A stretch of 64,000 bases of DNA from Acidobacteriota bacterium (GTDB lineage: Bacteria; Acidobacteriota; JAAYUB01), in NCBI GenBank assembly GCA_016935015.1, contig JAFGRT010000022.1, positions 118 through 64,117 on the forward strand, given 5' to 3'. Every line of letters begins with the position of its first letter. Position 1 is the first letter of the stretch. A program made the translations under genes and the position numbers. Of this stretch, positions 26,315 to 55,437 are shown piece by piece. The notes below the pieces were generated by a model, which worked only from the letters and a program-made list of their open reading frames with translations, was not told the origin of the DNA and did not search any database.

Positions 26315-26330
26315 GACAACGCCTCCTCTG

Positions 26331-26939: not shown

Positions 26940-26964
26940 CCCGCAATTCTCCTTCAATATTGTT

Positions 26965-29571: not shown

Positions 29572-29590
29572 GGTGCCTTAAAAGATCGAG

Positions 29591-29619: not shown

Positions 29620-29712
29620 TCTTATTTTTAGAAAATTCAAGGTGGGGAAAAGTTCAAAAGAATCGATTTCTGGAACAGATAAGGGACCACCGGCTGGTAA
29701 CCCACGGGCAGG

Positions 29713-32181: not shown

Positions 32182-32425
32182 GATCAACTCATTTCGATCC
32201 AGGTTTCGTCACATAAACGTCTTGCACGGCGCGGCCCGGATTCCTGTACGGTACGCCCAGGCAACCTGCTCGCAGGGCGCGGAGCCCCGCCAGGGATCAC
32301 CGGCGCGCTGTCGTCGTCCACGCTCACTACCTATGATGCATCAAGGTTGCCGTTTGTATCAATGGGAAATCAGAAAAATCCGCGGAATCCGCCGCCGCCG
32401 GAACAGGCTGCCGGGCACGGCACCC

Positions 32426-35875: not shown

Positions 35876-35979
35876 TCCATCCTTCCTTTGATTGTTGGAG
35901 TATGGGTGATGGTCGCCAGCAGGTTGCCCGTCGGGATGATTCCGTCCGGCTCTCCGACCCGGCGGCCGGCCGCCGGCAG

Positions 35980-36456
35980 CTACGGGGATCCGGGCTCCTC
36001 TGGTGCGGTTTCGCCGCCCGCGGGATCCGGCAGCGTTGGATCATCCTTGCCGGGGAGATAATGCTTGTTGATGGCATCCAGAATCCCGTTGATGAACTGG
36101 GTGGATTCCTCGGTGCTGAATTTGCGGGCGATCTCCAGGGCTTCGTTGATGACGACGGTGGTCGGCGTTTCCTGTTCATGCAGAAATTCGAAAACCGCCA
36201 TGCGGAGGATATTACGATCGACGGCGGCCATGCGTTCGATCCGCCAATGCTCGGAGTACTTCTGGACCAGGGCGTCGATATCGGTTCGATGTGCCAGCGT
36301 CCCCAAAAAAAGAAAATCGGCATATTTGCGGATCTCCGGCGACTTGGGGTGCAGACGCCAGTAAATATCATGGAATTCAGACACGGACATGGGCGAGAGA
36401 TCCGCCTGAAACAGCAGCTGCAATGCACATTCCCGTGCTTTTCTGCGGGCGCCCAT
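35980..36456 (-). CDS. nusB: Transcription antitermination factor NusB
   Basis: [15 protein letters not shown]-terminus. Conserved ribH-nusB order. Confidence 0.9.
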
Positions 36457-36481
36457 CCGGACCTCCGGTTGAAAGAACGAA

Positions 36482-36946
36482 CTACACGGATTTCAACAGA
36501 TTGACCATCTCCACGGCCGTCATAGCGGCCTCGAAGCCCTTGTTGCCGCTTTTCAGTCCGGCGCGATTGATTGCCTGTTCCACGGTATCGGCGGTAATGA
36601 TGCCGTACGTGATCGGCAATCCGGAATCCAGCGAGACCTGGGCAATGCCTTTGGTCACTTCGGCACTGATATATTCGAAGTGAGGGGTCTCACCCCGCAC
36701 CAACGCACCCAGGCAGATGACGGCGTCATATTTCTGCATTGTAGCCAGCCGCTTGGCCAGCAGCGGGATCTCAAACGAACCCGGCACCCGGAAAATATGA
36801 ACGTGCTCCTCGGCAGCACCGGTCCGCTTCAGGGCATCCAGGGCCCCGTCCAGCAAACGGCCCGTGATCATGCTGTTGTAACGGCTGACGATGATTCCAA
36901 AATAAAATTCCGCGGCCTGCAGCTGTCCTTCAAATACCTTCGACAC
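36482..36946 (-). CDS. ribH: 6,7-dimethyl-8-ribityllumazine synthase
   Basis: [34 protein letters not shown] and GVIRGxTxH-like [14 protein letters not shown] motifs. GTG 36946 lies 8 nt after AGGAG and is preferred over GTG 36955. Confidence 0.9.
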
Positions 36947-36976
36947 AGCACACACTCCTGCGCAAAGTTGGTACCC

Positions 36977-37004
36977 ATTATAAGTGTAAAATCACAAAAC
37001 ACAA
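36977..37004 (-). promoter_or_regulatory. Candidate sigma70 promoter for ribH-nusB
   Basis: Minus strand reads TTGTGT, 16 nt, TATAAT. It lies about 30 nt upstream of the ribH start. Confidence 0.4.
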
Positions 37005-37088
37005 CCTATTTAACAAACCGGGCGCCCCCGGAACCCATCGATGTCGGCGATCATGCCCGGTGCGACAATGCCCGGCCGGATGGCACAC

Positions 37089-37118
37089 TTGGCAACCATC
37101 GCTTCCGACTGCTACAAT
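37089..37118 (+). promoter_or_regulatory. Candidate sigma70 promoter placing the TSS at the Mut7-C gene start codon (leaderless)
   Basis: TTGGCA, 18 nt, TACAAT. The -10 ends 6 nt before ATG 37125. Confidence 0.35.
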
Positions 37119-37124
37119 AGGAGC

Positions 37125-37619
37125 ATGAATGGCCAACCGCCCGTGTTTATCGTGGATGTCATGCTGGGCAAATTGGCCCGCTGGTTGCGGTTGCTTGGCC
37201 TGGACGCCCTTTATGTGCGCCGCCGGAAACCGGAGGAGCTCCGGGCAGTGGCAACAAGCCCGGGCATCCTGGTCACCCGCGACCACCATCTGACCACCGG
37301 CCGTAAATACCCCGGGCCGGTCATCCTGATCGAATCCACAAACTGGCAGCAACAAATCCCGGAGTTTCTGGCCAAATCCGGCTGCCGGCCGTTCGTGCGA
37401 CCGTTCACCCGGTGCCCGACCTGCAACGGTCTCCTGGCGGAGCAACCGGCAACGGCGGTGGAGGGGAAAGTGCCCCGTTTCGTCGCCGCCCGGCATCGAA
37501 GGTTCTGCCGTTGCACCGTCTGCGGACAAATTTACTGGCCCGGCAGCCATCAGCGCCGCGTCCGGGAAATGCTCCGGCAATGGGGCCTGGCGGATACGCT
37601 TCCCCGCAACCGGACCTGA
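37125..37619 (+). CDS. Mut7-C/DUF82 PIN-like RNase domain protein with C-terminal zinc ribbon
   Basis: FIVDVMLGKLARWLRLLGLDALY N-terminus and CPTCNG...CTVCGQIYWPGSH ribbon. Start set at ATG 37125. Confidence 0.8.
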   Translation: MNGQPPVFIVDVMLGKLARWLRLLGLDALYVRRRKPEELRAVATSPGILVTRDHHLTTGRKYPGPVILIESTNWQQQIPEFLAKSGCRPFVRPFTRCPTCNGLLAEQPATAVEGKVPRFVAARHRRFCRCTVCGQIYWPGSHQRRVREMLRQWGLADTLPRNRT

Positions 37620-37643
37620 CGGCCGCTCCGGTCCACGGCCGGT

Positions 37644-38987
37644 TTACATCCGCGCCGCAACGGCCTCGCCGAAACCCGAACAGGAGAGCTCCTCCACGTC
37701 GGTGCGCCCTTCCCGGTGCATCAGACGGGCCAGGTCGTAGGTTACTTTTCCGTCCCGGATGGCCGCCGACATTCCCTGGATGATCAATTCGGCCGCTTCA
37801 TTCCAACCGAGATGCTCCAGCATCATGGCCGCCGAAAGGATGATGGATCCCGGATTTACCTTGTCCTGGCCGGTGTATTTGGGAGCGGTTCCGTGCGTTG
37901 CCTCGAAAACGGCGATCTCGTCGCCGATATTGGCTCCGGGTCCCAGCCCCAGCCCACCCACCAGGGCGATGGCCGCGTCCGACAGATAGTCGCCGTTGAG
38001 ATTGGGCAGTGCCAGGACGCTGTATTCATCGGGACGGGTTTGAATCTGCTGGAAAATGGAATCGGCGATTCGATCCCTGACCAGGATCTTGCCAGCCGGC
38101 AGCTGCCCGTCGAGTTCCTCCCACAGCTGTTTTTCGGTGACAATCCGGGCACCGAACTCTTCCCGGGCCACCTCGTAGCCCCACTTGGCGAAGGAACCCT
38201 CGGTGAACTTCATGATGTTTCCCTTGTGGACCAGGGTGACGGATGACAATCCCTGATCGACGGCCCACTGCAGTGCCTTGCGCACCAGCCGTTTGGTGCC
38301 GAAAACCGAAATGGGCTTGACTCCAATCCCGCTGTCGCTACGAATTTCGCGACCGGTCTTCTCCCGGATCAGATCGATGATGGCCAGAGCCACCTCAGAG
38401 CCTTTCTGAAAATCGTGACCGGCGTAGACATCCTCCGTATTTTCACGAAAAATGATGAAATTCACCTTGTCCGCATACTTATTGGGCGCCGGCACTCCCT
38501 CAAAATAACGCACCGGCCGGACACAGGCATACAAGTCCATGGACTGCCGCAGCCCGACATTGATGGAGCGGTAGCGTGGCGAAACGCCGTCGTCCCGACC
38601 GCAATTGTCGCAGCGCCCGGAGTGGTACTGCTGATGGGCGCAGTACAGACAGACATGCGTCTCCTCACCGATCGGCGTGGTGAACGGGCCCTTGATGGCC
38701 ACCTTGAGGTGCTTGATGGCGGCGATGCCTTCATCGGGAAAAACGGTGCCATAGTGATGCAGACCCTCCAATCCGAAATAGAGGGGGCACCAGGCGATGC
38801 TCCGCCGACCGCCGAAGGCTTTGGCCACCGCCTTGTCCACCGTGGCCTGCATCACCGGTGTGATGTCGAGTCCGATACCGTCACCCCGCAGGAAACCGAT
38901 GATGGGATGATCTCCAACCTGCAATTTGCCGTTCGTGACGGTGATCAGGTCGCCCTCCGGTATCTTGACTTCCTTAAAATCAACCAT
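37644..38987 (-). CDS. icd: Isocitrate dehydrogenase (NADP-type, homodimeric family) with Cys4 insertion
   Basis: Aligns by eye along its whole length to recalled E. coli Icd (GDGIG, NLNGDYLSD, FEATHGTAPKY, DKVNPGSIILS). GGGAGG Shine-Dalgarno sequence upstream. An extra CxxC-x9-CxxC segment sits at aa 108-138. Confidence 0.93.
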   Translation of the reverse strand: MVDFKEVKIPEGDLITVTNGKLQVGDHPIIGFLRGDGIGLDITPVMQATVDKAVAKAFGGRRSIAWCPLYFGLEGLHHYGTVFPDEGIAAIKHLKVAIKGPFTTPIGEETHVCLYCAHQQYHSGRCDNCGRDDGVSPRYRSINVGLRQSMDLYACVRPVRYFEGVPAPNKYADKVNFIIFRENTEDVYAGHDFQKGSEVALAIIDLIREKTGREIRSDSGIGVKPISVFGTKRLVRKALQWAVDQGLSSVTLVHKGNIMKFTEGSFAKWGYEVAREEFGARIVTEKQLWEELDGQLPAGKILVRDRIADSIFQQIQTRPDEYSVLALPNLNGDYLSDAAIALVGGLGLGPGANIGDEIAVFEATHGTAPKYTGQDKVNPGSIILSAAMMLEHLGWNEAAELIIQGMSAAIRDGKVTYDLARLMHREGRTDVEELSCSGFGEAVAARM

Positions 38988-39241
38988 GATTACCTCCCAC
39001 AGATAAATGGATTATTTTCATTTCTTACAAAAACCACCGGATCCCGGCGGCGATCCTCGCCTGTTGAACCGGCCCGCCTGATGCGGACGATGAATCTTGC
39101 CGCATGAGACGCACGGCGACGGATCGCGCTTCGACCGGGAACACACCGATTATCATATTGCAAATTTCTCTAAATTCAGATAAAGATTGTAAACGAATTC
39201 TTTGTTTTTACCAGGTGCCCGCCCAGGGAGGAATGGCAATC

Positions 39242-40033
39242 ATGCGATGTATGGCCGTGATACCCGTGCGCTACGCCTCCACGAGGCTCCCCGGCAAACC
39301 CCTGCTGCCCCTGGCTGGCAAACCTGTGATCCAGCACGTCTGGGAAAGAGCCATGTCCTGCCCCGATCTCGACGAGGTCCTGGTGGCGACGGATGATGAG
39401 CGGATCTCCGCGGCGGTCCAGGCTTTCGGCGGCCAGGTCACCATGACTTCGCCCGATCATACCTCCGGCACAGACCGCATCGCCGAAGCCACACTGGAAC
39501 TCGATGCCGACATCGTGGTGAACATCCAGGGTGATGAACCACTGATCGCCCCGCGCACCATCAGTGAAGTGGTGCGACCATTCGCCGTCAAGGAAGAAAT
39601 CGGCGTCACCACGGCCTGCACCGCCATCACCAGCCTGGACGAGTTGATGAATCCCAACTGCGTCAAAGTCGTTGTCGATTATGAAGGCTACGCCATTTAT
39701 TTTTCGCGGCTGCCTGTCCCCTTCTGCCGGATACCCGGCGGCACTCTGGACAATTACCGGGCCCAGCTGGCACGCAATCCGCTCTTGCTGAAGCAATTCA
39801 ACAAACACGTCGGTATCTACGCCTATCGCAAGAATTTCCTGCAGATTTTCGTCAACCTGCCGGTCTCTTTTCTTGAAAAGATGGAAAAGCTCGAACAGCT
39901 GCGATTCATCGAATACGGCTACCGGATCAAAGTGGTGGAAGTGCATGACAGCCCTCCCGGCATCGATACCCGGGAAGACTATGAGATCATCCGGCACATG
40001 CTGGAGGGGAGCGCGGCGGCGGATCGTCAGTAG
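39242..40033 (+). CDS. kdsB: 3-deoxy-manno-octulosonate cytidylyltransferase
   Basis: AVIPVRYASTRLPGKPL and VNIQGDEPLI motifs. ATG 39242 lies 10 nt after GGGAGGA. The 3' end overlaps convergent lepB by 7 nt. Confidence 0.9.
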   Translation: MRCMAVIPVRYASTRLPGKPLLPLAGKPVIQHVWERAMSCPDLDEVLVATDDERISAAVQAFGGQVTMTSPDHTSGTDRIAEATLELDADIVVNIQGDEPLIAPRTISEVVRPFAVKEEIGVTTACTAITSLDELMNPNCVKVVVDYEGYAIYFSRLPVPFCRIPGGTLDNYRAQLARNPLLLKQFNKHVGIYAYRKNFLQIFVNLPVSFLEKMEKLEQLRFIEYGYRIKVVEVHDSPPGIDTREDYEIIRHMLEGSAAADRQ

Positions 40034-40575
40034 ACCAACCCGATATCGTTCAACGGCCAATACTTCAACACGGCCTTGCCGTAAATGAAGCGACGGTGCA
40101 ACGCTCCCCAGTGCCGACTGTCGTTGCTGACACTGCGGTGGTCACCCATGACGAAAAAATGATCTTCCGGCACCCGGATCGGGCCGAGGCTGTGGCGGCT
40201 CTGAAAGTCCGGCGGGATGTAAGGTTCGGCCAGCAACCGGTCGTTGATGTAGACCCGCCCTTGTTCGATGGCCAGAGTTTCTCCGGGCAAGGCGACCACC
40301 CGCTTGATAAACGATTTGCGCACATCGCCCGGAAAGGAGAAGACCACCACATCCCCCCGCTCGATTTCAAAAACCCGGTAGCTGAATTTGTTGATGAACA
40401 CCCGCTCCTGATCGCCCAACTCCGGTTCCATGCTGGTACCTTCCACCCGAACCGGCTGGACAAGAAACGCCACCACAAACAACAGAATACCCAGTGCCAG
40501 TAGCAGGTTGCGCGAAAAATCACCCATCAGATCCAGAAATTGCCTGATCCGACGGTTTTCGGTATGTTCAAACAT
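40027..40575 (-). CDS. lepB: Signal peptidase I
   Basis: VEGTSMEPEL (catalytic Ser box), KRVVALPGE and GDHRSVSNDSRHWG motifs. Start at ATG 40575. Confidence 0.9.
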   Translation of the reverse strand: MFEHTENRRIRQFLDLMGDFSRNLLLALGILLFVVAFLVQPVRVEGTSMEPELGDQERVFINKFSYRVFEIERGDVVVFSFPGDVRKSFIKRVVALPGETLAIEQGRVYINDRLLAEPYIPPDFQSRHSLGPIRVPEDHFFVMGDHRSVSNDSRHWGALHRRFIYGKAVLKYWPLNDIGLVY

Positions 40576-40600
40576 AGTCTTCCGATCCAGGCCGGATGGT

Positions 40601-42382
40601 TTATTCTTCCAGCGCGAAAATCTCCTCCAGATTCCAGCACATGGTGGCACAACGATGACTTAACCGGATGTTCCGGATTTTACCCTTGGCCCCGAAAAGT
40701 CCGTGGGGCTTGACCAGGGTGATCATAAAATTGCTCTGATCCATCAATTGCTGAATACGGCGAGCGGCCTCGAACTTGGCACCGGGCTCCCCATGGAGGA
40801 AGATCCGATCCAGCACCGTGTTGATCTCCCGTTCGGCATCCGTCTCGGCCACATCCTGCTGGGTGTACCAGTAATGGCGGATACTGGATGAATGCATGAT
40901 CTCTTTCATGAAAAAAGGGTGCAGCGGATCAAGGAGAGTCATTACCACCATCTGGTAATTGGGCCGGGCAGAAAACAGATCCTTGTAGAAGAACTCATAG
41001 GGCAGGGACAGAACCGTGGCGCGGATACCCAGATTGGCGAGATCGGTCTCCACCCGGTTCGCCACTTTCTCGGCGGCGGTGTCGCCGGAAAGAACGGCAA
41101 TGGAGAAACTGACCTGATCATTGTTGCGTCCATAGGTGGCCGGTGAGCCGCCGCCGCGGTTATAGGTGAAATTGATTTCCCGCAGCTGCTGGAGCGCGGC
41201 ACCGGTACTGAGCTGGGTGAAGGGTGTCTCGAAATACCAGAGAGATTCCTGGGGGGAGATAATACTGCCGGCCGCAACTGCCTGGTTCATATAAACTTCT
41301 GAAACAAGGGCTCCCCGGTCGATCACACCGGCCACCGCCTGTCGAAAGACCGGCTCGGCGAAGAGATTGAACTGCCAGCGCTCAATGTTGGGCTGATCCG
41401 TCTGCGGATCCGTCCGGCGGCTGAGGTTGAACCAGGCGACGACTGTTGAACAGGAAGGCCCAACATCCTGGATATTGATACCGCGTACATTGGCCAATCG
41501 TTCCGAATCTTCCGGCGGGATAAAATCGATCAAATCCGTTTCGCCGGTTCTGAATTTCATGGATATTTCGGTGGAAGTATTGGCGAAACTGATGACCACT
41601 TCACGGGCATAAGGCAGGTTCTGCCCGGCTGGATCCACCGCCCAGAAGTTCGGATTGCGCTGCAGGAGCACCCGGTTCTCGTCCGGCGCAAACCGCTGGA
41701 TCATGAAGGGGCCGATGCTGGGCAATTCTTCCGGTGGAGACCGTAATTCATACAATGACGATAAACGATTCTGGCTGCGGGCTTCCTGAATCAACTCATG
41801 GGGCAGCGCCGGGATGCGGGCCAGGATGGGTTCGATGGCGGCTGTACTGTCCGGCAGAGTGAACTGCAGGGTGTTGTCGTCGATTTTACTATAGCCGATG
41901 GTGCCACCGGCGAATTGCAGAAACACCCGCAGCGGCGAAGGCTCCGGGGCTGACTGGAGGATAAGATTGAGTGTTTCAACCACATCATCCGCCGTGAACG
42001 GCCGCCCGTCACTGAACACGATATTGCGCCGCAGATGAATCGTGAAGATCTTGCTCTCGCTACCCCGGTCATACCCGCTGGCCAGCCAGGGATCGAATGT
42101 GTTCTTTACCGGGTCGAACCGGTACAGGGTGGCGGTGAGTTGCGCCGAGATCAGGCGGGAAACGTCATCCAGCGCCATCACCGGATTAAAGGTCAGCGGC
42201 GGATGCAATACCGCCATTTTCAGCAGGGGGGTGGCCACGCCGACCTCGCAATCCAGAATCCTGAACTCCGGCTTTTCCTCCGTTTTGATGAGCGGCATGT
42301 CCTCGACATACCCGCAGGAGACCACAAGCAAGGAAACCAGCGCGATGATGAGAACCGCTAGCAAGGATATTTTTTTGTTCAT
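40601..42382 (-). CDS. ABC-transporter substrate-binding protein, family 5 (peptide/nickel type), lipoprotein
   Basis: 593 aa. Lipobox LLVVSCG. Size and pattern fit the OppA/DppA family by eye. No cognate permease or ATPase genes are adjacent. Confidence 0.7.
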   Translation of the reverse strand: MNKKISLLAVLIIALVSLLVVSCGYVEDMPLIKTEEKPEFRILDCEVGVATPLLKMAVLHPPLTFNPVMALDDVSRLISAQLTATLYRFDPVKNTFDPWLASGYDRGSESKIFTIHLRRNIVFSDGRPFTADDVVETLNLILQSAPEPSPLRVFLQFAGGTIGYSKIDDNTLQFTLPDSTAAIEPILARIPALPHELIQEARSQNRLSSLYELRSPPEELPSIGPFMIQRFAPDENRVLLQRNPNFWAVDPAGQNLPYAREVVISFANTSTEISMKFRTGETDLIDFIPPEDSERLANVRGINIQDVGPSCSTVVAWFNLSRRTDPQTDQPNIERWQFNLFAEPVFRQAVAGVIDRGALVSEVYMNQAVAAGSIISPQESLWYFETPFTQLSTGAALQQLREINFTYNRGGGSPATYGRNNDQVSFSIAVLSGDTAAEKVANRVETDLANLGIRATVLSLPYEFFYKDLFSARPNYQMVVMTLLDPLHPFFMKEIMHSSSIRHYWYTQQDVAETDAEREINTVLDRIFLHGEPGAKFEAARRIQQLMDQSNFMITLVKPHGLFGAKGKIRNIRLSHRCATMCWNLEEIFALEE

Positions 42383-42574: not shown

Positions 42575-43249
42575 TCAGGAAATGTACTCGACGTCCCGGG
42601 GAAACTTGATTTCAAAGTTCTTGTCTTTGATTTTCTTGTTTATTTTGACCTTGAAGAACTGGATGATGGTCCGATCGCCGTTGAGCTCCTCGATGCGTTG
42701 CTGCATCGGAATGCCGGTATCGGCGTCGACCCAGAGAATGAGCTTGCTGAAGTAATCCTTGATTTTGGGATTGGTGGGCAATAGCTCGATGATATGGAAG
42801 ATCTGTTCCTCGATCACTTCATCTTTCACGAACGAAATATCAAAATTCTTCTTCAGCTCTTCGCTCGATGTACCGATGCCCACACCGGCATAGCGATCTC
42901 GATGATTTTCCAGAGAGCGCCGCAGCGCCTGGTTCTTCTTGGGGTAGTAAATGATGATTTCGTCAGGCGAAACCACCAGGATGGTGTTGCCCGGCTCCTC
43001 GATCTCCTTGCGTAGGAGAAATCCGCCCGGAATTTTTTTAAACAGGATCTTGCCCTTTTCCGGCTCATCCATCTCCTGCAACAGTTTGATCCATTTGGTC
43101 TGGATAAGCTCCGCCTGGAATGTCTGGACTTCGGAATTGAGGTGGTCCAGTTTGTCCAGAACGCGTTTCAGTTTGGAATTGTCTGCCGCCAGCCACATAC
43201 CGGGCAGACAGATCAGAATGATCACGATGGATGGAATTATCTTTTTCAT
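42575..43249 (-). CDS. LolA-family periplasmic carrier-like protein
   Basis: Signal peptide. LKRVLDKLDHLNSEVQTFQAELIQTK, GKILFKKIPGGF...LVVSPDEIIIYYPKKNQ and FEIKFPRDVEYI track recalled E. coli LolA motifs. Confidence 0.8.
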   Translation of the reverse strand: MKKIIPSIVIILICLPGMWLAADNSKLKRVLDKLDHLNSEVQTFQAELIQTKWIKLLQEMDEPEKGKILFKKIPGGFLLRKEIEEPGNTILVVSPDEIIIYYPKKNQALRRSLENHRDRYAGVGIGTSSEELKKNFDISFVKDEVIEEQIFHIIELLPTNPKIKDYFSKLILWVDADTGIPMQQRIEELNGDRTIIQFFKVKINKKIKDKNFEIKFPRDVEYIS

Positions 43250-43270
43250 GAAAAATCCTTGTTGTACCGA

Positions 43271-43474
43271 TCAGTTGTCGGCGTCGGTCATTTCGCCCGT
43301 CGTCAGGGCGGCCGTTTGCTCGATATGCGTCTGCGGGATGGTTTTGCGGACGCAGCTGTGGGGCGTCAGGAAGATGAACAGCAAGATCAGGATAACAATC
43401 ACATCGTATGCCAGGGATCCCCGTTCATGGGTCCACAGGAAAATTTGGCCGAGTCTCCGGGTAAACTTGCTCAT
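43271..43474 (-). CDS. Small single-TM protein (67 aa), unknown function
   Basis: MSKFTRRLGQIFLW...YDVIVILILLFIFLTP. Sits between the ABC ATPase and LolA-like genes with gaps of about 21 nt. Start is uncertain. Confidence 0.45.
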   Translation of the reverse strand: MSKFTRRLGQIFLWTHERGSLAYDVIVILILLFIFLTPHSCVRKTIPQTHIEQTAALTTGEMTDADN

Positions 43475-43496
43475 GGCAATCCAACCCCGCGTTCGT

Positions 43497-44213
43497 TTAT
43501 AGGGTGAAAACGCCTTCGTGCTCGACATGGAAGTCGGCGTGTTTGGGCACGATCTTCCCGTCGAGCATCTCGATGATGCGATGCGTGTATGTCGCCGTGG
43601 TGGGCTCGTGGGTGATCACGACGATGGTCTGGTTGTATTTGAGATTGAGATCCCGCAACATCCGCATGACGATGTGGGAGTTGACGGAGTCCAGGTTGCC
43701 GGTGGGCTCGTCGGCCAGCAGGAGACTGGGGCGATTGATCACCGCCCGGGCCAGGGCGACCCGTTGCTGCTCCCCGCCGGAAAGCTCCAGCGGTTTGTGA
43801 TCCATTTTGCCCTTGAGGCCCAGCATCTCCAGAATCTCGTCCACGGTGGTCGCGTCAGCGCCGTGGTTCCCGTGGATTTTGCGCGCCAGTTCGATATTGT
43901 CCTTGGCGCTGATGGTGGGGAAGAGATTAAACCGCTGGAACACGAATCCGATCTTCTTGCGCCGAACTTCGGTGCGCCGCCGGTCGCCGCTGCTGGCGAT
44001 ATTGATGCCGTCGATGATGATGTCCCCGGACGTCGGGCTCAACAAGCCGCCCAGCAGATGCAGCAGCGTTGATTTCCCGCAACCAGACGGCCCCATAATG
44101 GCCACGAATTCGCCCTTCTTCACCTGGAAATTCACACCGCGCAGGGCCGGGACATCCACTTTGCCCACCCGGTAAACCTTGGTCAGATCTCTGGTTTCAA
44201 CGATAAATCGCAT
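43497..44213 (-). CDS. ABC transporter ATP-binding protein (MacB/LolD/FtsE-like)
   Basis: [25 protein letters not shown] and [12 protein letters not shown] motifs. Start at ATG 44213 ([14 protein letters not shown]). Confidence 0.9.
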
Positions 44214-44303
44214 CTCTCGCGTGCACTCACTTCTACAATTTCGACGGTTTAGTATAAAACCTTTGCCGGTGCGGATCAAGGAATAAGGGACCGGGACAGA
44301 TTC

Positions 44304-45404
44304 CTACTCGTACATCAAGGCCTCGACCGGATCCTGTTGGGCGGCCCGAAAAGCGGGATAGAACGACCCCAACGCCCCGCTGACCAGCGCGATGAGGGCC
44401 ACATAACCCATCACGTCCAGCTTCAGCAGGATGGGCAGGGAAGGATACAGCCGGGTCAGGATTTCGGTGGCGGCCATGGAAAGCACCAACCCCAACCCGA
44501 CGCCGATGGATGTCAGCAGCAGCGATTCACGCAGGATGAGGGAAACGATGAACAGTTTGGTGGCTCCCAGGGACTTGAGAATGCCGATCTCACGGGTTCT
44601 CTCGGTGATGGTGGTGTACATGGTCAGCAGGATCACCAGAAAGCTGATGAGGACAGCCACGACGACGATGGCGGCGGTGAACTCCTGCAGACCGGGCAAA
44701 TTGGAGGACATGACCATCTCAATATCCGAGCCCTTGGTCGTGTTGTAGCCCTTGAACAGCTCATTGGTGGTCAGGAAGCGATAGACGTCGTCCACCCGAT
44801 CCTTGTTCTCGCAACGGATATAGAAAATACTGGCCTTGTTGCGGGAATCATTGAGTTCCTGCAGTGTTTCCAGGGGAACCAAGATTCGTGAGCCTATACC
44901 CGACTTGAAGATGCCTACAATCATGAAAGCATGATTTAGAATATCGAGGGTCTGCCCCACCTGAACCTTGTTGCTCTCGGCGTAAATGTCGTCGACCACG
45001 CATTCGTAAGGATCATCGAACAGACGACCCTGCATGATGATCAGACCGTTCTGGCTGACCTCGTTGAACGAGACGGGATCGATGCCGAACACCAGGGAGA
45101 ATTTCTTCTTGCTGAACTGGTGGAGCATGGGGGAGACGTGCTTGATACCGTCCACCTCCATGAGTTTTTCCTGGATGCGCACCGGCATGGTGGCATTGTT
45201 CAGGGCGAAAAGAAGGGACGAGCCGGACGGCTGGAACAGGATATCGGCCTTGACGTTCTGAAGACGATCGGACGCATCCTTGAGCATACCCTGGGACATG
45301 CCCACGAACAGAACGATCATGACAACTCCGACACTGACGGCCAGAATGCTGACAATCGTGCGGGTCGGACGCTTCTTGATATTGGAGACGATTAAACCGG
45401 CCAA
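44304..45404 (-). CDS. FtsX/MacB-type (type VII) ABC permease with periplasmic domain
   Basis: 366 aa. TM1, a periplasmic domain of about 190 aa, then three TM segments. Ends DPVEALMYE. Confidence 0.85.
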   Translation of the reverse strand: MAGLIVSNIKKRPTRTIVSILAVSVGVVMIVLFVGMSQGMLKDASDRLQNVKADILFQPSGSSLLFALNNATMPVRIQEKLMEVDGIKHVSPMLHQFSKKKFSLVFGIDPVSFNEVSQNGLIIMQGRLFDDPYECVVDDIYAESNKVQVGQTLDILNHAFMIVGIFKSGIGSRILVPLETLQELNDSRNKASIFYIRCENKDRVDDVYRFLTTNELFKGYNTTKGSDIEMVMSSNLPGLQEFTAAIVVVAVLISFLVILLTMYTTITERTREIGILKSLGATKLFIVSLILRESLLLTSIGVGLGLVLSMAATEILTRLYPSLPILLKLDVMGYVALIALVSGALGSFYPAFRAAQQDPVEALMYE

Positions 45405-45407
45405 ACG

Positions 45408-46325
45408 CTACCTCGAATTTTCTTGACTCAATTCCACAATTTTCGCTGACTCCGGGACGGTCATGTGAAACATCTCGTCGTTGAGTTCCGCATCCGCATC
45501 CACCCGATCCAGCCGGAACTGGATTCGGTAGCCCTCGATGGGCCGGTAGAGAAAAATCTCCTGGGGAAAAGACCGACCGGAGGTTGTCGGTGGATACCAG
45601 TAGATCACCTGGCTGATGGTGACGCCTTCCTCGTTGTAGATGAATTTCTTGCGAATATTCAGGGTGGAACGCTCCAACCATATTTTTTGCCGCAGGACAG
45701 GATAGCCGCCCTCGGTCCGACCGATCTCGTGTAGCACATAATAGCGTTCCTGGGGCGAGTCCTCCTCGATGACGACGAAATCGGACGGGTTCACGCCCAG
45801 CGGAGAATGAAAAAAAGTGGTGGTAATGTGCCAGGGCCTCAGTTTTGCCAGATTCTGGCGGGGTTCGGCGTCACTCTCCACCCCATCGTTCGTTTCATTG
45901 AGCGGCACTTTCAGCAGATCATCACCGATTTTCCCTTTGTACAGGGTTTTCTTTTTGGGGAACCAGATCTCGAACAGACCCTCTCGGGCGGCGACATCCG
46001 CCATGGTGGTCTTGATAAGCGGGGCAAACACCTGCAGCCGGAGATCGCCGTTCCGGCGTAGCGCAAGAACCCCCGAAACCGTGGGTAATTTTTCCCTCTT
46101 CATCCGGATCAGGGACTCACCCGAAAACGTCATGGACGCTTTCTTGATCAGGACGGACTGATGACGGGAAAACAGCTCCTGAAACTGCGCGAGGATCTCA
46201 TCCCGGCTCAATTCTTTGGCATCTTCATACCGCTGGCCCACGGAGATTTTTTCCTTCTTGACACCGCACGCCAGGGCCAGCAAGACCAGCAGGGCAGTTG
46301 CGACGAGAACCAGTTTTCGGGACAT
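45408..46325 (-). CDS. Lipoprotein with LolA/LolB-superfamily-like sequence pattern
   Basis: Lipobox LLALACG. GVLALRRNGDLRLQVFAPL...LFEIWFP...MFHMTVPESAKIVEL resembles LolB/DUF4292-type proteins by eye. The functional assignment is inferred. Confidence 0.6.
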   Translation of the reverse strand: MSRKLVLVATALLVLLALACGVKKEKISVGQRYEDAKELSRDEILAQFQELFSRHQSVLIKKASMTFSGESLIRMKREKLPTVSGVLALRRNGDLRLQVFAPLIKTTMADVAAREGLFEIWFPKKKTLYKGKIGDDLLKVPLNETNDGVESDAEPRQNLAKLRPWHITTTFFHSPLGVNPSDFVVIEEDSPQERYYVLHEIGRTEGGYPVLRQKIWLERSTLNIRKKFIYNEEGVTISQVIYWYPPTTSGRSFPQEIFLYRPIEGYRIQFRLDRVDADAELNDEMFHMTVPESAKIVELSQENSR

Positions 46326-46471
46326 GGATTACTCTCACAATCGAGGCCGGGCCTCCGGAAAATCGAAGAAACTCTAACAAAACTACCCAATTGTGTCAAG
46401 AATAACTGCTGTTTTTTGCTTTTTGATCTGTTACAATATTTTTTCCATATTCCAAAAAATGGTCGAGGGGA

Positions 46472-48682
46472 ATGACCACACGCAAACGAAGGAAGCTGGC
46501 CGAGATCACGGGCATGGCCCTGCTGGTGATCGCCATTCTGCTGACATTGGCCCTGGTGAGTCATCACCCCACCGATCCCTCCTGGAGCGTCACCACCACC
46601 GCCGACCACTCGCGAAATCTCATCGGCCGGGTGGGGGCTTGGTTCAGTGATATCTTGTTCCAGCTACTGGGTCTGGGAGCGTTCGTCCTCCTGATTCCCC
46701 TGTTTCATTTGGCCATCCGGCTTCTGTTCAAAAAGGCTTTTATTCATCTTTTCGCCCATTTCAGCGGGGTTTTTCTGGTGCTGGTGTCACTCAGCGGGCT
46801 GGGGAGTACATGGCAAATTCGCGTTCCCGCCGCCGGCAACGCCGCGCCGGGCGGATTACTGGGCACCAACCTGGCGACTCTTCTCATTCGCTATTTCAAT
46901 GAGGGGGGTGCGACCATCATGCTGGTGGCCGGATTCATCATCGGCGTGCTGCTCCTTACATCCCGCACCCTTGATGAACTGCGGGCCGCACTTTTTTACC
47001 GGGTGGCCCGGTTGTTCCGGCGAAAATCCACGGCGTCCGCCGGATCGGCGGTCACGGTTCCCCGACCGGAAGTCGAGGCTCCGGATCCCCCTTCCCCGAT
47101 GCCCGAATCCCGTTTGCGTCCCCGGCCCGACTCCGCACCGGCGGCCCCCAAACCGGCCGCGACAACGGCCAGCATCCCGATTTCCCGAATGGAATTTCGG
47201 GACGATTTCTCCGGCGATGAAACACCGGAAGGGATCAAAAACCTGGTGACTTTCCCCAGCCCGCCCCTGTCTCTGCTCCATGAATCCCATGAGACAGCCA
47301 AGGTCAACGAGACGGAACTCATGGAAAAGGCCGGCCAGATTATCGAAAAGCTTTCCGAATTCAATATCAGCGGCAGTATCGCCGCCATTCATCCCGGCCC
47401 GGTGGTTACCCTCTTTGAATTTCGACCGGCGCCGGGGGTCAAGTACAGCCGCATTCTTTCCCTGGTGGATGACCTGTGCCTGGGGCTCAAGGCCGTGTCC
47501 ATTCGCATCGATCGCATCCCGGGCAAATCCACCATCGGCATCGAGGTACCCAACAACCAGCGGCAGTTGATCCCGATCCGCTCCCTGCTTGAATCCCGGG
47601 AATTCCAAAGCGCCCGCTCGCCCCTCACCCTGGCCCTGGGCAAGCGGATCAACGGTGATGCCTTTATCACCGACCTCGGTGTCATGCCGCACCTGCTGGT
47701 GGCCGGGGCCACCGGTACGGGGAAAAGCGTCGGCCTCAATTCCATGATCACGTCCATCCTTTACAAGAGCAATCCACAGCAGGTCCGGTTCGTCATGATC
47801 GATATCAAGCGCACGGAGTTAAATTTTTACGAAGATATTCCCCACCTGTTGACCCCCATTGTCACCGATGCCAAGGTGGCGGCCAACACTCTCATCTGGA
47901 CCGTTCAGGAGATGGAGGAGCGGTACAAGCTGCTGGCCAAGTACGCCGTGCGGGACATCTCCCAGTTCAACAAGGTGAGTGCCGATACCGGCGAGACGGA
48001 ACCGTTGCCTTATGTGGTTATCGTGATCGATGAATTTGCCGAATTGTTGTCCGTCGCCTCCAAGGAAGTGGAGCTCTGCCTTCAACGCCTGGCCCAGATG
48101 GCGCGGGCGGTAGGCATTCATGTGCTGCTGGCGACCCAGCGCCCATCGGTGGAGACCATTACCGGCGTCATCAAGGCCAATTTTCCAGCCCGCATCTCAT
48201 TCCGGCTTTTATCGCGGCATGATTCCAAGACCATCCTGGACACCGTGGGGGCCGAGCATTTGCTGGGCAAGGGTGACATGCTGTTTCTGCCGCCCAACTC
48301 TTCCAAGCTGATCCGTATTCACGGCTGCTATACGGATGAGGATGAAACCAAGCGGCTGGTGGATTTTCTGAAAAAATACGGCGAGCCGGACTATCAGGAT
48401 CTACCCATTCCCCGTGCGGATGACGATTCGGAAGAGGGCGTTCTGGATCCCCAGGACGATGATCTTTACGAAGATGTCGCCCGTTTCATTGTGAAGTACC
48501 GCAAGGCTTCCACGTCGGTGCTCCAGCGCCGTTTCCGCATCGGGTACGGCCGCGCGGCCCGTCTCATGGATGTCCTGGAAGAAAATGGACTCGTGGGTCC
48601 ACCCAACGGCAGCCGGCCCCGGGAAGTTTTGGTTCCACCCGATTTTTACGACCAGGTGGACAGCACCAAAGACGAACCATGA
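46472..48682 (+). CDS. ftsK: DNA translocase FtsK
   Basis: N-terminal TM segments, a Pro-rich linker, Walker A GATGTGKS and the gamma-domain wHTH STSVLQRRFRIGYGRAARLMD. Confidence 0.93.
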   Translation: MTTRKRRKLAEITGMALLVIAILLTLALVSHHPTDPSWSVTTTADHSRNLIGRVGAWFSDILFQLLGLGAFVLLIPLFHLAIRLLFKKAFIHLFAHFSGVFLVLVSLSGLGSTWQIRVPAAGNAAPGGLLGTNLATLLIRYFNEGGATIMLVAGFIIGVLLLTSRTLDELRAALFYRVARLFRRKSTASAGSAVTVPRPEVEAPDPPSPMPESRLRPRPDSAPAAPKPAATTASIPISRMEFRDDFSGDETPEGIKNLVTFPSPPLSLLHESHETAKVNETELMEKAGQIIEKLSEFNISGSIAAIHPGPVVTLFEFRPAPGVKYSRILSLVDDLCLGLKAVSIRIDRIPGKSTIGIEVPNNQRQLIPIRSLLESREFQSARSPLTLALGKRINGDAFITDLGVMPHLLVAGATGTGKSVGLNSMITSILYKSNPQQVRFVMIDIKRTELNFYEDIPHLLTPIVTDAKVAANTLIWTVQEMEERYKLLAKYAVRDISQFNKVSADTGETEPLPYVVIVIDEFAELLSVASKEVELCLQRLAQMARAVGIHVLLATQRPSVETITGVIKANFPARISFRLLSRHDSKTILDTVGAEHLLGKGDMLFLPPNSSKLIRIHGCYTDEDETKRLVDFLKKYGEPDYQDLPIPRADDDSEEGVLDPQDDDLYEDVARFIVKYRKASTSVLQRRFRIGYGRAARLMDVLEENGLVGPPNGSRPREVLVPPDFYDQVDSTKDEP

Positions 48683-49728
48683 TCCTCCCCCGCCCCGCCG
48701 CGCGACGATGCCTGTTCCTGCTCCTGGCGCTGGGCCTGCTGGCAGCGTGTCCATCCACTGACAGCCCTCCCTCCGCCACCACCTGCTTCATCCGTCGGAA
48801 TCTGTTTTTGGGCACGCTGTACACGGTGACCATTTATCATCACCAGCCGACGGGGAAAGTTTATGCCGCCTACGAGCAGCTGGTTCGAGACCTGAACCGG
48901 CTGGAAGCAATGACCAGCTTTCAATCGCCCGACAGCGAGATCCGCCGGATCAACAATTCCGCCGGTGGCTCGCGCATTGCCCTGTCACGGCCGTTCGCCC
49001 GTCTGCTGGACACGGCCGACCGTTATTACCGGGAGACCGATGGCTGTTTCGACGTGACCGTGCATCCCTTGCTGGCCGAATGGGGCTTCTATCGGCAAAA
49101 GCAGTCGGATCCCGATCCCCGGCAAATGTCGGCCATCCTGGCACGGATCGGCTTTCACCGCTTGCACTGGCAGCCTGGCACCGCCGAGCTGCTCATTCCG
49201 GAAGGAGGCGTGCAATTGGATTTCGGCGGCATGATCAAAGGGGTTGCCATGGACCGGGCTGTTACGATCCTGCGCTCCGCCGGCCTGACCAATTTCCATC
49301 TCGATTTCGGGCGCAGCAGTCATTTCGCGGCGGGTCCCGCTGATGGCCGGGGTTGGCGGATTCCCATCGCCACTCCCCGAAACCCGGAACAGGTGCTGCT
49401 GGAAGCACGGCTGGACGGGTATGCGCTGGCCATCTCCGCCGGCGGGGCGGATTGGCACTCGCGAAGCGGCCAATCCTATTCCCTCATTGTCGATCCGCGC
49501 AACGGCCAGCCAGCCACGACTCCGACCATGAGCGTTGTGATATCCGCCCGGGCCACCGCCGCCGACGCCTGGTCCACCGCCCTGCTGGTGGATGAAGGGC
49601 TTCTTCAAAAACGGACGTCCCTCTCCCCGGATCTGACCGCGGCGGCGGTCATTACGCCCGGCGGCGTCATCCGCTGGTATCCCGACCGGGTCACGGTGCG
49701 CCCTTTTTTTCCGGATCCATCCCCCTGA
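48679..49728 (+). CDS. apbE: FAD:protein FMN transferase (ApbE family), lipoprotein
   Basis: Lipobox LLAAC and a GGMIKGVAMD-type ApbE motif. Overlaps the ftsK stop by 4 nt (ATGA). Confidence 0.8.
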   Translation: MILPRPAARRCLFLLLALGLLAACPSTDSPPSATTCFIRRNLFLGTLYTVTIYHHQPTGKVYAAYEQLVRDLNRLEAMTSFQSPDSEIRRINNSAGGSRIALSRPFARLLDTADRYYRETDGCFDVTVHPLLAEWGFYRQKQSDPDPRQMSAILARIGFHRLHWQPGTAELLIPEGGVQLDFGGMIKGVAMDRAVTILRSAGLTNFHLDFGRSSHFAAGPADGRGWRIPIATPRNPEQVLLEARLDGYALAISAGGADWHSRSGQSYSLIVDPRNGQPATTPTMSVVISARATAADAWSTALLVDEGLLQKRTSLSPDLTAAAVITPGGVIRWYPDRVTVRPFFPDPSP

Positions 49729-49859
49729 TGTCCGCCCCGCCCTGATTTCCTGTTTCCGGAGCGCCATGCTGCCTGACCGGTAATGCCGGCGGGAACTTGG
49801 ATCATCTTTGTACGTGATACTGATGTGGAAGATGAAATCATTGCGGAGGTGCTCCACTC

Positions 49860-50696
49860 ATGAAACAAATGCTCCTTTTCACCCTGCTGACCCTGGTTGG
49901 TTCGCTGCAGCCCCTGGCCGGCGCACCCCAGGAGGACCCGGAAGACAATCTTGTCTTCATGCTGGGGGAAAACGCCGGCAATGCCTGGCTCGGTGTCAAA
50001 ATACGGGATCTCAACGCCGCCGAGTTGGACGAAATTTCGGCCATGGATGACCTGGGCGTTTACATCAGCGAGATTCTGGCGGATTCCCCAGCCGAGAAAG
50101 CCGGATTGGAAAAAGGCGACATCATTGTCCGCCTGGCCGGCATTCCCGTCATCGGCGCCGAACATTTCATCCAGATGATCCGCAGCAGCGCATCCGGGCG
50201 GACCTTCACCATCGAGTTCCTGCGGCAAGGAAAAAACCGGACGGCCAAAGTGACCCTGGCGGAAAAATCCCGGGATCGACGCTATCGCTATTTCTCTCCT
50301 TCCGGAGCGGTGATCCCCGAAATACCACAACCATCGTCGCCGCGGCTGTTCGACTTTTTCTCTTACCGCAACCGGCCACGTTTGGGCATCTACTACGAGG
50401 ACATCACCGAACAGCTGGCCCGCTTTCTCGGGGTGGAGGAAGGAACCGGCGTTCTCATCACCTCGGTGATCAAGGATTCTCCGGCGGAAAAGGCCGGTTT
50501 GCGGGCCGGGGATGTGATCGTCCGGATCGACGACACCGCCGTGGAAAATTCCGGCGATCTCATGGCAGCGTTACAGGAGAATGATCCGTCGGCCGTACTG
50601 AAGGTGCGGGTGGTTCGGAAAGGGGAACGGCTGGAGTTCGAAATCAGCCCACAGAAACAGGAACGTTCCCAGCGGCGAGGACGCCTGTCCATCTGA
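49860..50696 (+). CDS. Secreted tandem-PDZ-domain protein (no protease domain)
   Basis: Signal peptide. Two PDZ-type segments (SPAEKAGLEKGDIIVRLAG and SPAEKAGLRAGDVIVRIDD). GGAGG Shine-Dalgarno sequence upstream. Confidence 0.8.
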   Translation: MKQMLLFTLLTLVGSLQPLAGAPQEDPEDNLVFMLGENAGNAWLGVKIRDLNAAELDEISAMDDLGVYISEILADSPAEKAGLEKGDIIVRLAGIPVIGAEHFIQMIRSSASGRTFTIEFLRQGKNRTAKVTLAEKSRDRRYRYFSPSGAVIPEIPQPSSPRLFDFFSYRNRPRLGIYYEDITEQLARFLGVEEGTGVLITSVIKDSPAEKAGLRAGDVIVRIDDTAVENSGDLMAALQENDPSAVLKVRVVRKGERLEFEISPQKQERSQRRGRLSI

Positions 50697-50707
50697 ATCA
50701 GGGAATG

Positions 50708-50735
50708 GATCCCCGGACAAGGACGCCCGGGGATC
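50708..50735. terminator. 9-bp perfect hairpin between convergent genes (possible bidirectional terminator)
   Basis: gatccccgg (50708-50716) pairs with ccggggatc (50727-50735), 10-nt loop. No clear T-tract on either side. Confidence 0.35.
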
Positions 50736-50761
50736 ATCTGATCATCCGGCGGAGATCACGA

Positions 50762-51679
50762 TCAGAACATCTGATCGGATTCCCCTTCTTGCTCTTCCTG
50801 CTGTTTCTTTAACTGCAGTTCCTTGATGGCCAGCCGGCTGGCTTTCTTGCGAAATTCGGTTTTCGCTTCCTCGTCATCCGTCAGGGCCGCCTTCTGGAAA
50901 TAGCACAGGCTGAGATAGCGGACGGTCATATAGTCCTCTTTAAGTTCATTGGACTGTTCCAGGGCCGCAATGGCCTCGTCCACCGTCTTCATGATCATCT
51001 GGGGTTGCCGGATGATCTCTTCTCGGGCCTGGATATCCATCTGGATCTGTTCGATCTCGGACTGCAATTCCTGTCTCCGCTCATCCGTGCGCGCCCGATC
51101 CATCTGCCGCTGCAGCTGGGTAATTTCCTTCTGCTTGGCGTCCACTTCTTCCTTGGCCTTGTTGACTTCATCGAATAGCATCTCGGCGCGCTGGCCGTTA
51201 TCCCCGATGACGTTCTTGGCTTCGTCCCATTTGATCAGTCCGATACCAAACAGCGGCATGGGATTCTGCGGATCGATCTCGCTGTGAATCTGTTGATAGC
51301 ATTGGGCGGCATCATCCAGTTTCCCTGTGGTGTAATAGGCACGGGCCAGACGCAGCAGGGCGTTGACATTCTTGGGATCCTTCTCCAGCGCCTTCTGGAA
51401 GGCCAGGATGGCCTTGGCCGCGATCTCTTCCTGTCCCGGTATGTATTGTTTCATGTAAGCCATACCGAGATATTCATAAACAATGTTCAGTTCGGGATCC
51501 ATTTCCAGCGCCTTGGTGAAAAACTCGATGGCCTGATTGTATTGTTTCCCGCGAAATGACTTCACACCCTTGTTCAGCTGATCCCGGGCCTTGAGTTTAT
51601 CCACATACTGGCATCCGCTCAGCAGCAGGGCAAAAACAACCAGTACCGCCACCAGGGTCGATATTCGAAATCGCTTCAT
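50762..51679 (-). CDS. TPR-repeat lipoprotein with C-terminal coiled coil
   Basis: Lipobox LLLSGC. TPR-like repeats (AIEFFTKALEMDP..., AILAFQKALEKDP...). It is the last gene of the tonB-exbBDD run. Confidence 0.8.
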   Translation of the reverse strand: MKRFRISTLVAVLVVFALLLSGCQYVDKLKARDQLNKGVKSFRGKQYNQAIEFFTKALEMDPELNIVYEYLGMAYMKQYIPGQEEIAAKAILAFQKALEKDPKNVNALLRLARAYYTTGKLDDAAQCYQQIHSEIDPQNPMPLFGIGLIKWDEAKNVIGDNGQRAEMLFDEVNKAKEEVDAKQKEITQLQRQMDRARTDERRQELQSEIEQIQMDIQAREEIIRQPQMIMKTVDEAIAALEQSNELKEDYMTVRYLSLCYFQKAALTDDEEAKTEFRKKASRLAIKELQLKKQQEEQEGESDQMF

Positions 51680-51691
51680 GTTCAGACCTCC

Positions 51692-52114
51692 CTAATCTTC
51701 CAGTTCTGTCATCAGGCTGATTTGTTCGACTCCAGCGCCCTTGGCGGCATCGATGGCTTGAACGATGTACAGATAAAACACATCTTTGTCGCCCTTGACA
51801 AAAATGCTTTTGTCCGCCCTTCCGGCATAAATCTCCTGCAATTTGGCCTGCAAGCCTCCCCAACCGACGTTGTCCCGGTTGACCTCTACGATGGTTCCGC
51901 CTTCCTTGACGTCCACAACGATACCCTTCAACTTGTCCAGAATCTCCTGCGGTACATCTTGTTCCAGCTTCTCGGGCACCTGGACGAAGATACCCTTCGG
52001 GGTAAAGGGCGTAATCACCATAAAGATGATCAGGAGGACGAGCAGAATGTCGATATAGGGGGTAACGTTAATATCGGATTTGGGGCCACCGCCCCCACCC
52101 GTTGACATTCCCAT
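51692..52114 (-). CDS. exbD: Biopolymer transport protein ExbD/TolR
   Basis: 140 aa. INVTPYIDILLVLLIIFM TM motif. Confidence 0.88.
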   Translation of the reverse strand: MGMSTGGGGGPKSDINVTPYIDILLVLLIIFMVITPFTPKGIFVQVPEKLEQDVPQEILDKLKGIVVDVKEGGTIVEVNRDNVGWGGLQAKLQEIYAGRADKSIFVKGDKDVFYLYIVQAIDAAKGAGVEQISLMTELED

Positions 52115-52133
52115 GGTAACTCTCCTTTACACG

Positions 52134-52550
52134 CTATTTTTCGTCGATAACCAACCCGATTTGATCGAGTCCGGCCTCCTTGATCAATTCCAGAGCCGCC
52201 ACCACCGACTCATAGGACACTTTCGCGTCACATTTGAAGTAGGCTTGTCCCTGGGCATTGAAATCTCTAAGATACTCGACTTGCTTTTTCAATTCATCCC
52301 GGTCGCCGAAGGCCTCATCCCAGATAAAGAGTGTGCGCTCCACATCCATGCCCACCAAGATGGCTTCCCGGTCTTCGGCCTCGGGCATATCCACCAGATT
52401 GGCTCCCCGGGGAAGATTCACGGTGATCCCGCTTTGCAGCAGGGGCGTGGTGATCATGAAAATGATCAGCAACACCAGCATGATGTCAGCCATGGGAGTC
52501 ACGTTAATATCGGAGTTGACCCCACTGACCGCCTTCTTTTTTTTAGCCAC
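52134..52550 (-). CDS. exbD: Biopolymer transport protein ExbD/TolR (second copy)
   Basis: 138 aa. INVTPMADIMLVLLIIFM TM motif. Confidence 0.88.
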   Translation of the reverse strand: MAKKKKAVSGVNSDINVTPMADIMLVLLIIFMITTPLLQSGITVNLPRGANLVDMPEAEDREAILVGMDVERTLFIWDEAFGDRDELKKQVEYLRDFNAQGQAYFKCDAKVSYESVVAALELIKEAGLDQIGLVIDEK

Positions 52551-53250: not shown

Positions 53251-53287
53251 TGGCGTAACCTCCATAAAAATTTTTTCTAATCTATGG

Positions 53288-54094: not shown

Positions 54095-54180
54095 TTGATC
54101 CTCCAGACTATCGAAATAGTCGAATTTTGACGATTTTCAAACAAACGTATCAAAAATTAAATGACTTCCTCAAAATGATG

Positions 54181-55389: not shown

Positions 55390-55437
55390 GGTCTCTCCTC
55401 AAAATTGCTTAGACACGCAGTCTCTTGGAATGTTCCG

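Follow-up and report, generated by a model that had tools for sequence, protein, structure and literature searches.

We analysed 64,000 nucleotides (nt) of genomic DNA from an Acidobacteriota bacterium (contig JAFGRT010000022.1 of assembly GCA_016935015.1; the whole stretch is referred to below as the window) and focus here on a cluster of five open reading frames (ORFs), A to E, that run on the minus strand from 46325 to 42575. The first, A (45408-46325), encodes a 305-amino-acid lipoprotein of the LolA/LolB open-barrel superfamily, a candidate LolB-type acceptor. It is followed by B (44304-45404), a 366-amino-acid type VII ATP-binding cassette (ABC) permease with a TTG start and the C-terminal end DPVEALMYE, and by C (43497-44213), a 238-amino-acid ABC ATPase of the LolD/MacB/MJ0796 type. 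D (43271-43474; longest ORF 43271-43528) encodes a 67-amino-acid bitopic membrane protein that begins with the ATG at 43474 (MSKFTRR...), and E (42575-43249) a 224-amino-acid LolA-family periplasmic protein with a type I signal peptide. The longest ORF for C spans 43497-44279, and its likely start is the ATG at 44213, as called in a close relative (locus L004). Intergenic gaps measure 3 nt between A and B, 24-90 nt between B and C, 22 nt between C and D and 21 nt between D and E, and both the ORFs and the short strings quoted for them in an earlier reading of the DNA (the original prediction, which gave gaps of 3-90 nt) are present as described there. A consensus scan found a TG-extended promoter-like site (TTGACA-17-TAGAGT, 46371-46399, minus strand) about 45 nt upstream of A, inside the divergent ftsK-A intergenic region, which is suggestive of a promoter for the cluster. 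A sequence scan detected no terminator-like hairpin inside the A-E cluster, and Rfam models detected no regulatory RNA in the operon region. Since orthologues of all five ORFs occur in the same order on unrelated metagenome contigs, these are real genes and not chance ORFs.

The signal sequence of A carries the lipobox LLALA-C-G, and the protein also contains GVLALRRNGDLRLQVFAPL, LFEIWFP and MFHMTVPESAKIVEL. Taken alone, A gives a sub-threshold match to LolA_like (E = 0.019, Pfam) and no significant match in Pfam or NCBIfam; the curated LolB models of these two collections do not match it. A word-indexed homologue search with A returned only four relatives, whereas an exhaustive profile search returned 357 cluster representatives at 50% identity; of these, 129 reached E ≤ 1e-10, with lengths mostly of 290-320 amino acids. 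In a 43-member family alignment (A2), the lipobox cysteine (Cys20) is invariant (43/43) and is preceded by [LAS][SAL][GSA], while aspartate at position +2 is found in none of the 43 members. A is thus a lipoprotein as judged from its conserved lipobox. PF17131 (LolA_like) is matched by 26 members, DUF4292 by 17 and DUF2092 by six. The top NCBIfam family for the set is NF053559 (LolB1_Flavo), matched by 14/43 with a best E-value of 1.8e-8 but always below its 50-bit cut-off; the best DUF4292 match (E = 5.7e-9) likewise lies below the curated cut-off. By these profile searches, neither Pfam nor NCBIfam has a model dedicated to the A family. A and B gave no match to plasmid sequences in tblastn, and a Segniliparus match from a contig scan with the A alignment was rejected as spurious.

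Structure prediction for A depended strongly on the depth of the alignment. With few close homologues, AlphaFold2 gave an unusable model (predicted local distance difference test score, pLDDT, of 41), whereas the 43-member alignment gave a pLDDT of 90.3 and a predicted template modelling score (pTM) of 0.85. Read from the N-terminus, the latter model has a helix and six strands, then an acidic loop of poor order (approximately residues 133-155), and after it a pair of internal helices and a further seven or eight strands; together these form an unclosed antiparallel beta-barrel with internal helices. In a Foldseek search of the Protein Data Bank (PDB), the top matches of this model are exclusively structures of the LolA/LolB superfamily, including 9tpm, 1iwm and 8orn. 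They include NE2245 (E = 5.6e-12), Porphyromonas gingivalis LolB (9tpm; E = 1.5e-9, TMt 0.63) and Escherichia coli LolB (E = 5.9e-7, TMt 0.62), as well as 4z48, Pseudomonas aeruginosa LolA, P. gingivalis LolA3 and the Xanthomonas LolA-LolB complex; E-values for NE2245, LolA and the two LolB proteins span 1e-12 to 1e-6. The original prediction had placed A among the LolA/LolB-type open barrels, an assignment that the single sequence does not by itself confirm; at the level of the family, the AlphaFold2 model, Foldseek and the profiles all agree on it, and the predicted fold of A can be taken as established at that level. In proteobacterial LolB a hydrophobic residue protrudes from the beta3-beta4 loop (PMC11885536; Leu68 in E. 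coli). The A family has a conserved hydrophobic residue in the corresponding predicted loop, between strands 95-100 and 107-114, where Pro102 (40/43) is followed by valine, leucine or isoleucine at position 103 (40/43), a correspondence in sequence position.

E is a LolA-family protein, as had been predicted: it scores 42.9 bits on Pfam LolA (PF03548), where the gathering score is 23.6. The cut-offs of the stricter NCBIfam equivalogs are not reached, with 56 bits against 112 for TIGR00547 (lolA) and 59 against 125 for LolA2_flexi; its orthologue in L007 reaches 99 bits on TIGR00547. The E family profile aligns end to end with P. aeruginosa LolA (8.6e-13), with a mostly basic residue at the position equivalent to LolA Arg43. 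The hydrophobic N-terminus of E lacks a lipobox, as do those of 17 of 21 orthologues, and E is predicted from these features to be a soluble periplasmic protein. The signal peptides of the other four orthologues (L011:5387-6103, L036, L058 and L079) contain a lipobox-like motif such as LAAC or FAGC, so the E-type 'carrier' might itself be lipidated in some lineages. When the A and E family profiles were compared, hhalign aligned them over 204 columns covering the whole barrel (98.4%, E = 4.8e-15), with insertions in A relative to E. A and E are therefore homologous, and their profiles identify them as paralogous barrels, a relationship that mirrors that of LolA and LolB.

B contains a MacB_PCD domain (65.9 bits, residues 16-207) and an FtsX domain (68 bits, residues 245-359) in Pfam, and its four transmembrane (TM) segments and MacB-like periplasmic core domain are those of a type VII ABC permease, with one TM helix at the N-terminus, the large core domain next and an FtsX bundle of three TM helices at the C-terminus. 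Transporters of this type (MacB, LolCDE, FtsEX) do not transport across the inner membrane; they turn ATP hydrolysis into mechanical work on the periplasmic side. The best PDB matches of B are Spr0695 (3e-11), MacB (5e-11), YtrF, LolC (3e-7) and LolF (5e-5). On the lolCE model TIGR02212, whose cut-off is 362 bits, B reaches 56.5, and it is 21% identical to a LolF encoded elsewhere in the window. As the original prediction held, B is distinct from that permease; judged by these scores, it is not a LolC/E/F orthologue and belongs to none of the characterised type VII subfamilies, nor does it group with characterised MacB-type exporters. The public NCBI gene call for B is 338 amino acids long; because the 366-residue form, with its TTG start and first TM segment, is conserved in L001, L010 and L011, that annotation probably truncates the N-terminus. 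C matches ABC_tran (134 bits, Pfam) and has LolD as its best NCBIfam model (221 bits, below the cut-off of 308); its top PDB matches are MJ0796, Spr0694 and LolD, and the nucleotide-binding domains (NBDs) of MacB also match. Its identity to the ATPases found in other modules is 54-70%, against only 38% to the LolD of the window; C is therefore a dedicated orthologue within the module.

A conventional Lol extractor is encoded 8 kb from the module. The permease gene at 33159-34376 (minus strand), downstream of lysS, encodes a protein that ends in DPVEVIRYE, scores 382 bits on TIGR02212 (cut-off 362) and matches LolF in the PDB at 2e-67; for the ATPase gene that follows it (32426-33229, minus strand), the top PDB matches are all LolD. 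By these assignments, the pair is a genuine LolF-LolD, separate from B and C.

Between C and E, essentially every full module carries an orthologue of D, a small protein in which the motif W-x-Y-x-R-G-S-x-x-Y-D precedes a single TM helix and a variable C-terminal tail that sometimes reaches roughly 100 amino acids. D has no match in Pfam or NCBIfam. The original prediction assigned no role to this 67-amino-acid protein; there is indeed no database model for it, but its sequence conservation marks D as a family and a member of the module, not a stray ORF. In one peat or soil lineage (L015, L016, L018, L024, L027, L029 and L031), D has an extra C-terminal domain of about 100 amino acids (NDRPTLELTDLRHQQG...). 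Separately, a D-like small TM gene lies downstream of mutS2 at L041:3-326 (minus strand), where the permease has no A, C or E alongside.

The conservation of the module was examined in metagenomes, where a scan with the permease alignment gave at least 589 relatives; the best 80 loci were analysed with hidden Markov models built here. The order A-B-C-D-E is kept in L001, L004, L010, L011, L012, L092, L096 and about 20 further loci with differing flanks. Identity of A to the window protein is 85% in L004, approximately 50% in L010 and L096, 40% in L001 and 26% in L011, and the synteny persists to about 25% identity, which bears out the predicted conserved module. Among the best 80 loci, A lies directly upstream of B in 50 of the 58 that have sufficient flank, and the two genes often overlap. 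In the permease clade nearest the window, A is upstream in 25/25 loci and C downstream in 25/25, with D and E next wherever the contig is long enough; the one exception is L025, in which A-B-C is followed by ispH without D or E. A more distant clade from soil and peat (clade II; permease identity 37-40%) has A-B only, often beside mltG and ruvX. Another variant, A-C-D-E without an adjacent permease, is found in L007, L008, L009, L094 and L095, which belong to an AT-rich anaerobe lineage that includes assembly GCA_964645975.1, and some A genes stand alone. The module had been called self-contained, a description that fits the lineage of the window but not the family at large, given these reduced forms. 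The neighbours of one A family member include DUF3738 and CarboxypepD_reg, which together with the soil and peat origin of the samples suggest Acidobacteriota or a relative as the host taxon.

A permease, an ATPase, a LolA barrel and a paralogous lipoprotein, with no membrane fusion protein (MFP), TolC or biosynthetic gene as neighbour, are most economically read as a relay. We give somewhat better than even odds to the view that the five genes specify a Lol-type relay whose cargo is an envelope component, either lipid-anchored or hydrophobic in some other way. In such a relay, a homodimer of B powered by two copies of C would pull the cargo from the outer leaflet of the inner membrane, in the mechanotransmission mode of type VII ABC systems, and D would probably act as an intramembrane accessory of this extraction step. 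B would then pass the cargo to the soluble periplasmic barrel E, and E would deliver it to its lipoprotein paralogue A, which would serve, as LolB does, as a membrane-anchored acceptor or insertase, presumably in the outer membrane. LolF-LolD could also feed E and A. The cargo would most likely be lipoproteins; it may instead be a lipid, as the flexirubin-associated LolA2/LolB2 pair suggests by analogy (PMC11885536).

Several observations weigh against this relay. A by itself has no significant database match, and the LolB1 and DUF4292 matches of its relatives stay below the curated cut-offs. It is structurally as near to PF17131 'LolA-like' proteins of unknown role (3buu, 4z48, LolA3) as it is to LolB, and is about 100 amino acids longer than LolB. 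The tightest linkage in the data set, that of A with B (50/58 loci), together with about 35 A-B loci that have no C, D or E alongside, would also fit A as an inner-membrane partner of the permease. In some lineages no permease gene adjoins the others (L007-9, L094-95), or D and E are missing (L025).

A tentative alternative, which we regard as possible at well under even chances, is that E and A serve the lineage as its sole, housekeeping LolA and LolB-analogue. LolF-LolD would then be the main extractor and feed both, and the operon would represent the back half of a single Lol pathway to which B, C and D add an auxiliary or alternative extractor. The full-length match of the E family profiles to genuine LolA, and the closeness of the L007 orthologue to the TIGR00547 cut-off (99 against 112 bits), fit this arrangement. 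So do the A genes that stand alone or only with B near mltG and ruvX, as would be expected of a general factor. The module adjoins ftsK in the window (46472-48682, plus strand, divergent from A), in L004 and in the approximately 50%-identity L096, and in E. coli lolA lies immediately downstream of ftsK; the ftsK-A adjacency may be a remnant of an old ftsK-lolA linkage. No other LolA-like ORF was found in the 64-kb window or in the flanks examined, and a separate lolA could lie elsewhere in the genome; the word-indexed homologue searches were sparse and give no basis for claiming that a second LolA is absent. Against a purely housekeeping role, A, D and E co-evolve with an ATPase and a permease of their own, whereas LolF-LolD is never found in the cluster. 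As the lineage may have no LolA/LolB pair besides E and A, the proposal of a second trafficking route in the original prediction is left unsupported. A stronger form of the relay can likewise be put forward only with reserve: A would found, for a major phylum other than Proteobacteria or Bacteroidota (probably Acidobacteriota and its relatives), a family of LolB-type outer-membrane lipoprotein insertases, and would work in a self-contained second Lol pathway, parallel to LolF-LolD, with its own non-LolF type VII extractor, its own LolA, the new single-TM subunit D and a distinct lipid-anchored cargo.

Less probable again, and in our judgement unlikely, is that A is a LolA-like adaptor tethered to the inner membrane, docking on the periplasmic domain of B and handling a non-protein hydrophobic cargo (a membrane lipid, a pigment or a toxic amphiphile), like PF17131 proteins encoded beside FtsX- or MMPL-type transporters. 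The A-B pair is conserved more strongly than any other unit, and C, D and E are missing beside it in most loci of clade II. PF17131 is matched by more A family members than DUF4292, the top structural matches of A are uncharacterised proteins of the LolA superfamily, and the LolA2/LolB2 pair of the flexirubin locus provides a precedent for a pair devoted to a lipid pigment (PMC11885536). However, none of the loci has genes for lipid or pigment biosynthesis beside the module, nor do biosynthetic genes of any kind adjoin it in the annotated loci, and A is also found without B. That a soluble LolA, E, is present as a separate protein is accounted for most simply if a carrier hands its cargo to an acceptor. 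The absence of aspartate at +2 (0/43) argues weakly against retention in the inner membrane, as the sorting rules of the lineage may differ. Finally, we reject as very improbable a pump of the MacB type devoted to efflux or detoxification of a soluble substrate (peptide, antibiotic or toxin) with LolA-like genes linked by chance, for although the best PDB matches of B include MacB and the Spr0693-0695 pump, no MFP (HlyD/MacA) or TolC/OEP gene, as a MacAB-type tripartite pump would call for, adjoins the module in the window, in L001, L004, L010, L011, L092 or L096, or across more than 10 annotated loci (a search of neighbouring genes), B is as weakly similar to MacB as to LolC, and accidental linkage does not account for five genes that stay in order down to 25% identity.

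Compared with proteobacterial Lol (LolCDE or LolF2D2, LolA, LolB), the proposed relay has the same parts list: a type VII extractor, a soluble carrier and a paralogous lipoprotein. E resembles proteobacterial LolA in its full-length alignment and its mostly basic residue at the Arg43 equivalent. The differences are that B is not a LolC/E/F orthologue, that all components of the module lie in one operon, that there is an extra conserved single-TM micro-protein, D, and that a genuine LolF-LolD coexists in the genome. A itself differs from proteobacterial LolB in being larger by about 100 amino acids, with an acidic loop and extra strands. The type VII systems MacAB-TolC, FtsEX, HrtBA, BceAB and YbbAP share the permease architecture (MacB_PCD and FtsX, four TM segments) and the NBD family; unlike them, the module has no adaptor or TolC, EnvC-like partner or sensor kinase, and its partners are proteins of the LolA/LolB fold.

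The nearest curated family to A is that of Bacteroidota LolA1/LolB1 (DUF4292, NF053559; BF9343_0270/BT_3463, P. gingivalis LolB 9tpm). Like LolB1, A is a lipoprotein larger than E. coli LolB with a loop extension; unlike LolB1, the A family matches these models below the curated cut-offs, and A of the window does not match them. In Bacteroidota, lolB1 lies apart from lolA and from ABC transporter genes (PMC11885536). In the flexirubin locus of Flavobacterium johnsoniae, LolA2 and LolB2 are also a LolA-like and a LolB-like gene side by side, a specialised copy besides the housekeeping pair, and the best NCBIfam match of E is LolA2_flexi (59 bits, below the cut-off of 125); in contrast to that locus, the module has no pigment or polyketide biosynthesis genes and its transporter is a type VII ABC. 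By structure and by profile, A has its best matches in PF17131 ('LolA_like / TP_0789-like'; 3buu, 3bk5, 4z48 and P. gingivalis LolA3 9tp6), with a larger barrel of 13 strands. The solved examples are uncharacterised, and A differs from them in being a lipoprotein encoded with a bona fide LolA-family partner; P. gingivalis LolA3, whose signal peptide is of type I, fails to bind LolB (PMC13103446). A cluster on Borrelia lp38, BBJ23-BBJ29, was predicted computationally to combine a MacB-like ABC with a LolA-like protein (PMC13078400). Unlike the module, it is plasmid-borne and has an Omp85 barrel and chaperones, but no LolB-like lipoprotein and no D-type micro-protein.

In the literature we found no published description of the five-gene module or of the A and D families. 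A bifunctional LolA in Caulobacter is reportedly a recent answer to the missing LolB. How lipoproteins are inserted into the outer membrane where no LolB is recognisable is a long-standing open question (PMC11784454), and reviews to 2024 state that LolB cannot be identified beyond beta- and gamma-proteobacteria (PMC11784454, PMC8871954). The original prediction repeated this restriction, which is outdated: DUF4292 lipoproteins are functional LolB in Bacteroidota, and papers from 2025-26 extend LolB to that phylum only (PMC11885536, PMC12889592, PMC13103446). In particular, a Bacteroides DUF4292 protein complements depletion of LolB in E. coli (PMC12889592). The A family, a widespread lipoprotein family with a LolB-like fold in synteny with LolA and a type VII extractor, is a candidate LolB for another large group of environmental diderms. 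The module would indicate that the Lol parts list can be duplicated, or rebuilt around a non-LolF permease and a new small membrane subunit; it bears on the evolution of Lol from MacB-like pumps and should be of interest to research on outer-membrane biogenesis.

The window as a whole is rich in envelope-biogenesis genes (LpxA, BamA, ClpB, LolF-LolD after lysS, KdsB, LepB, FtsK and SecD), and envelope genes, signal peptidase I and ApbE among them, are unusually dense on both sides of the module, at 25035-40650 and 46472-57042. The host is therefore a lipopolysaccharide-bearing diderm. An orphan solute-binding lipoprotein of the SBP_bac_5 family (peptide/nickel type, 593 amino acids, 40601-42382, minus strand) is encoded 192 nt downstream of E and is not accompanied by genes for an ABC importer; the 3' end of its gene overlaps the longest ORF of the signal peptidase gene. 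We rejected it as a member of the module because it is kept only in the closest relative, L004, which also carries ExbB/ExbD and a TPR protein. At the other end of the window, positions 1-8700 have a GC content of 45-47%, compared with about 58% elsewhere, and encode glycosyltransferases (three of type GT4, one of GT2) together with a B12-binding radical-SAM enzyme and a pair of NAD-dependent sugar epimerases/dehydratases. This region is probably a surface-polysaccharide island, possibly acquired horizontally. Finally, a hybrid histidine kinase/response regulator of 1569 amino acids is encoded at 15935-20644 (plus strand), and its N-terminal region weakly matches a PorZ-type beta-propeller model.

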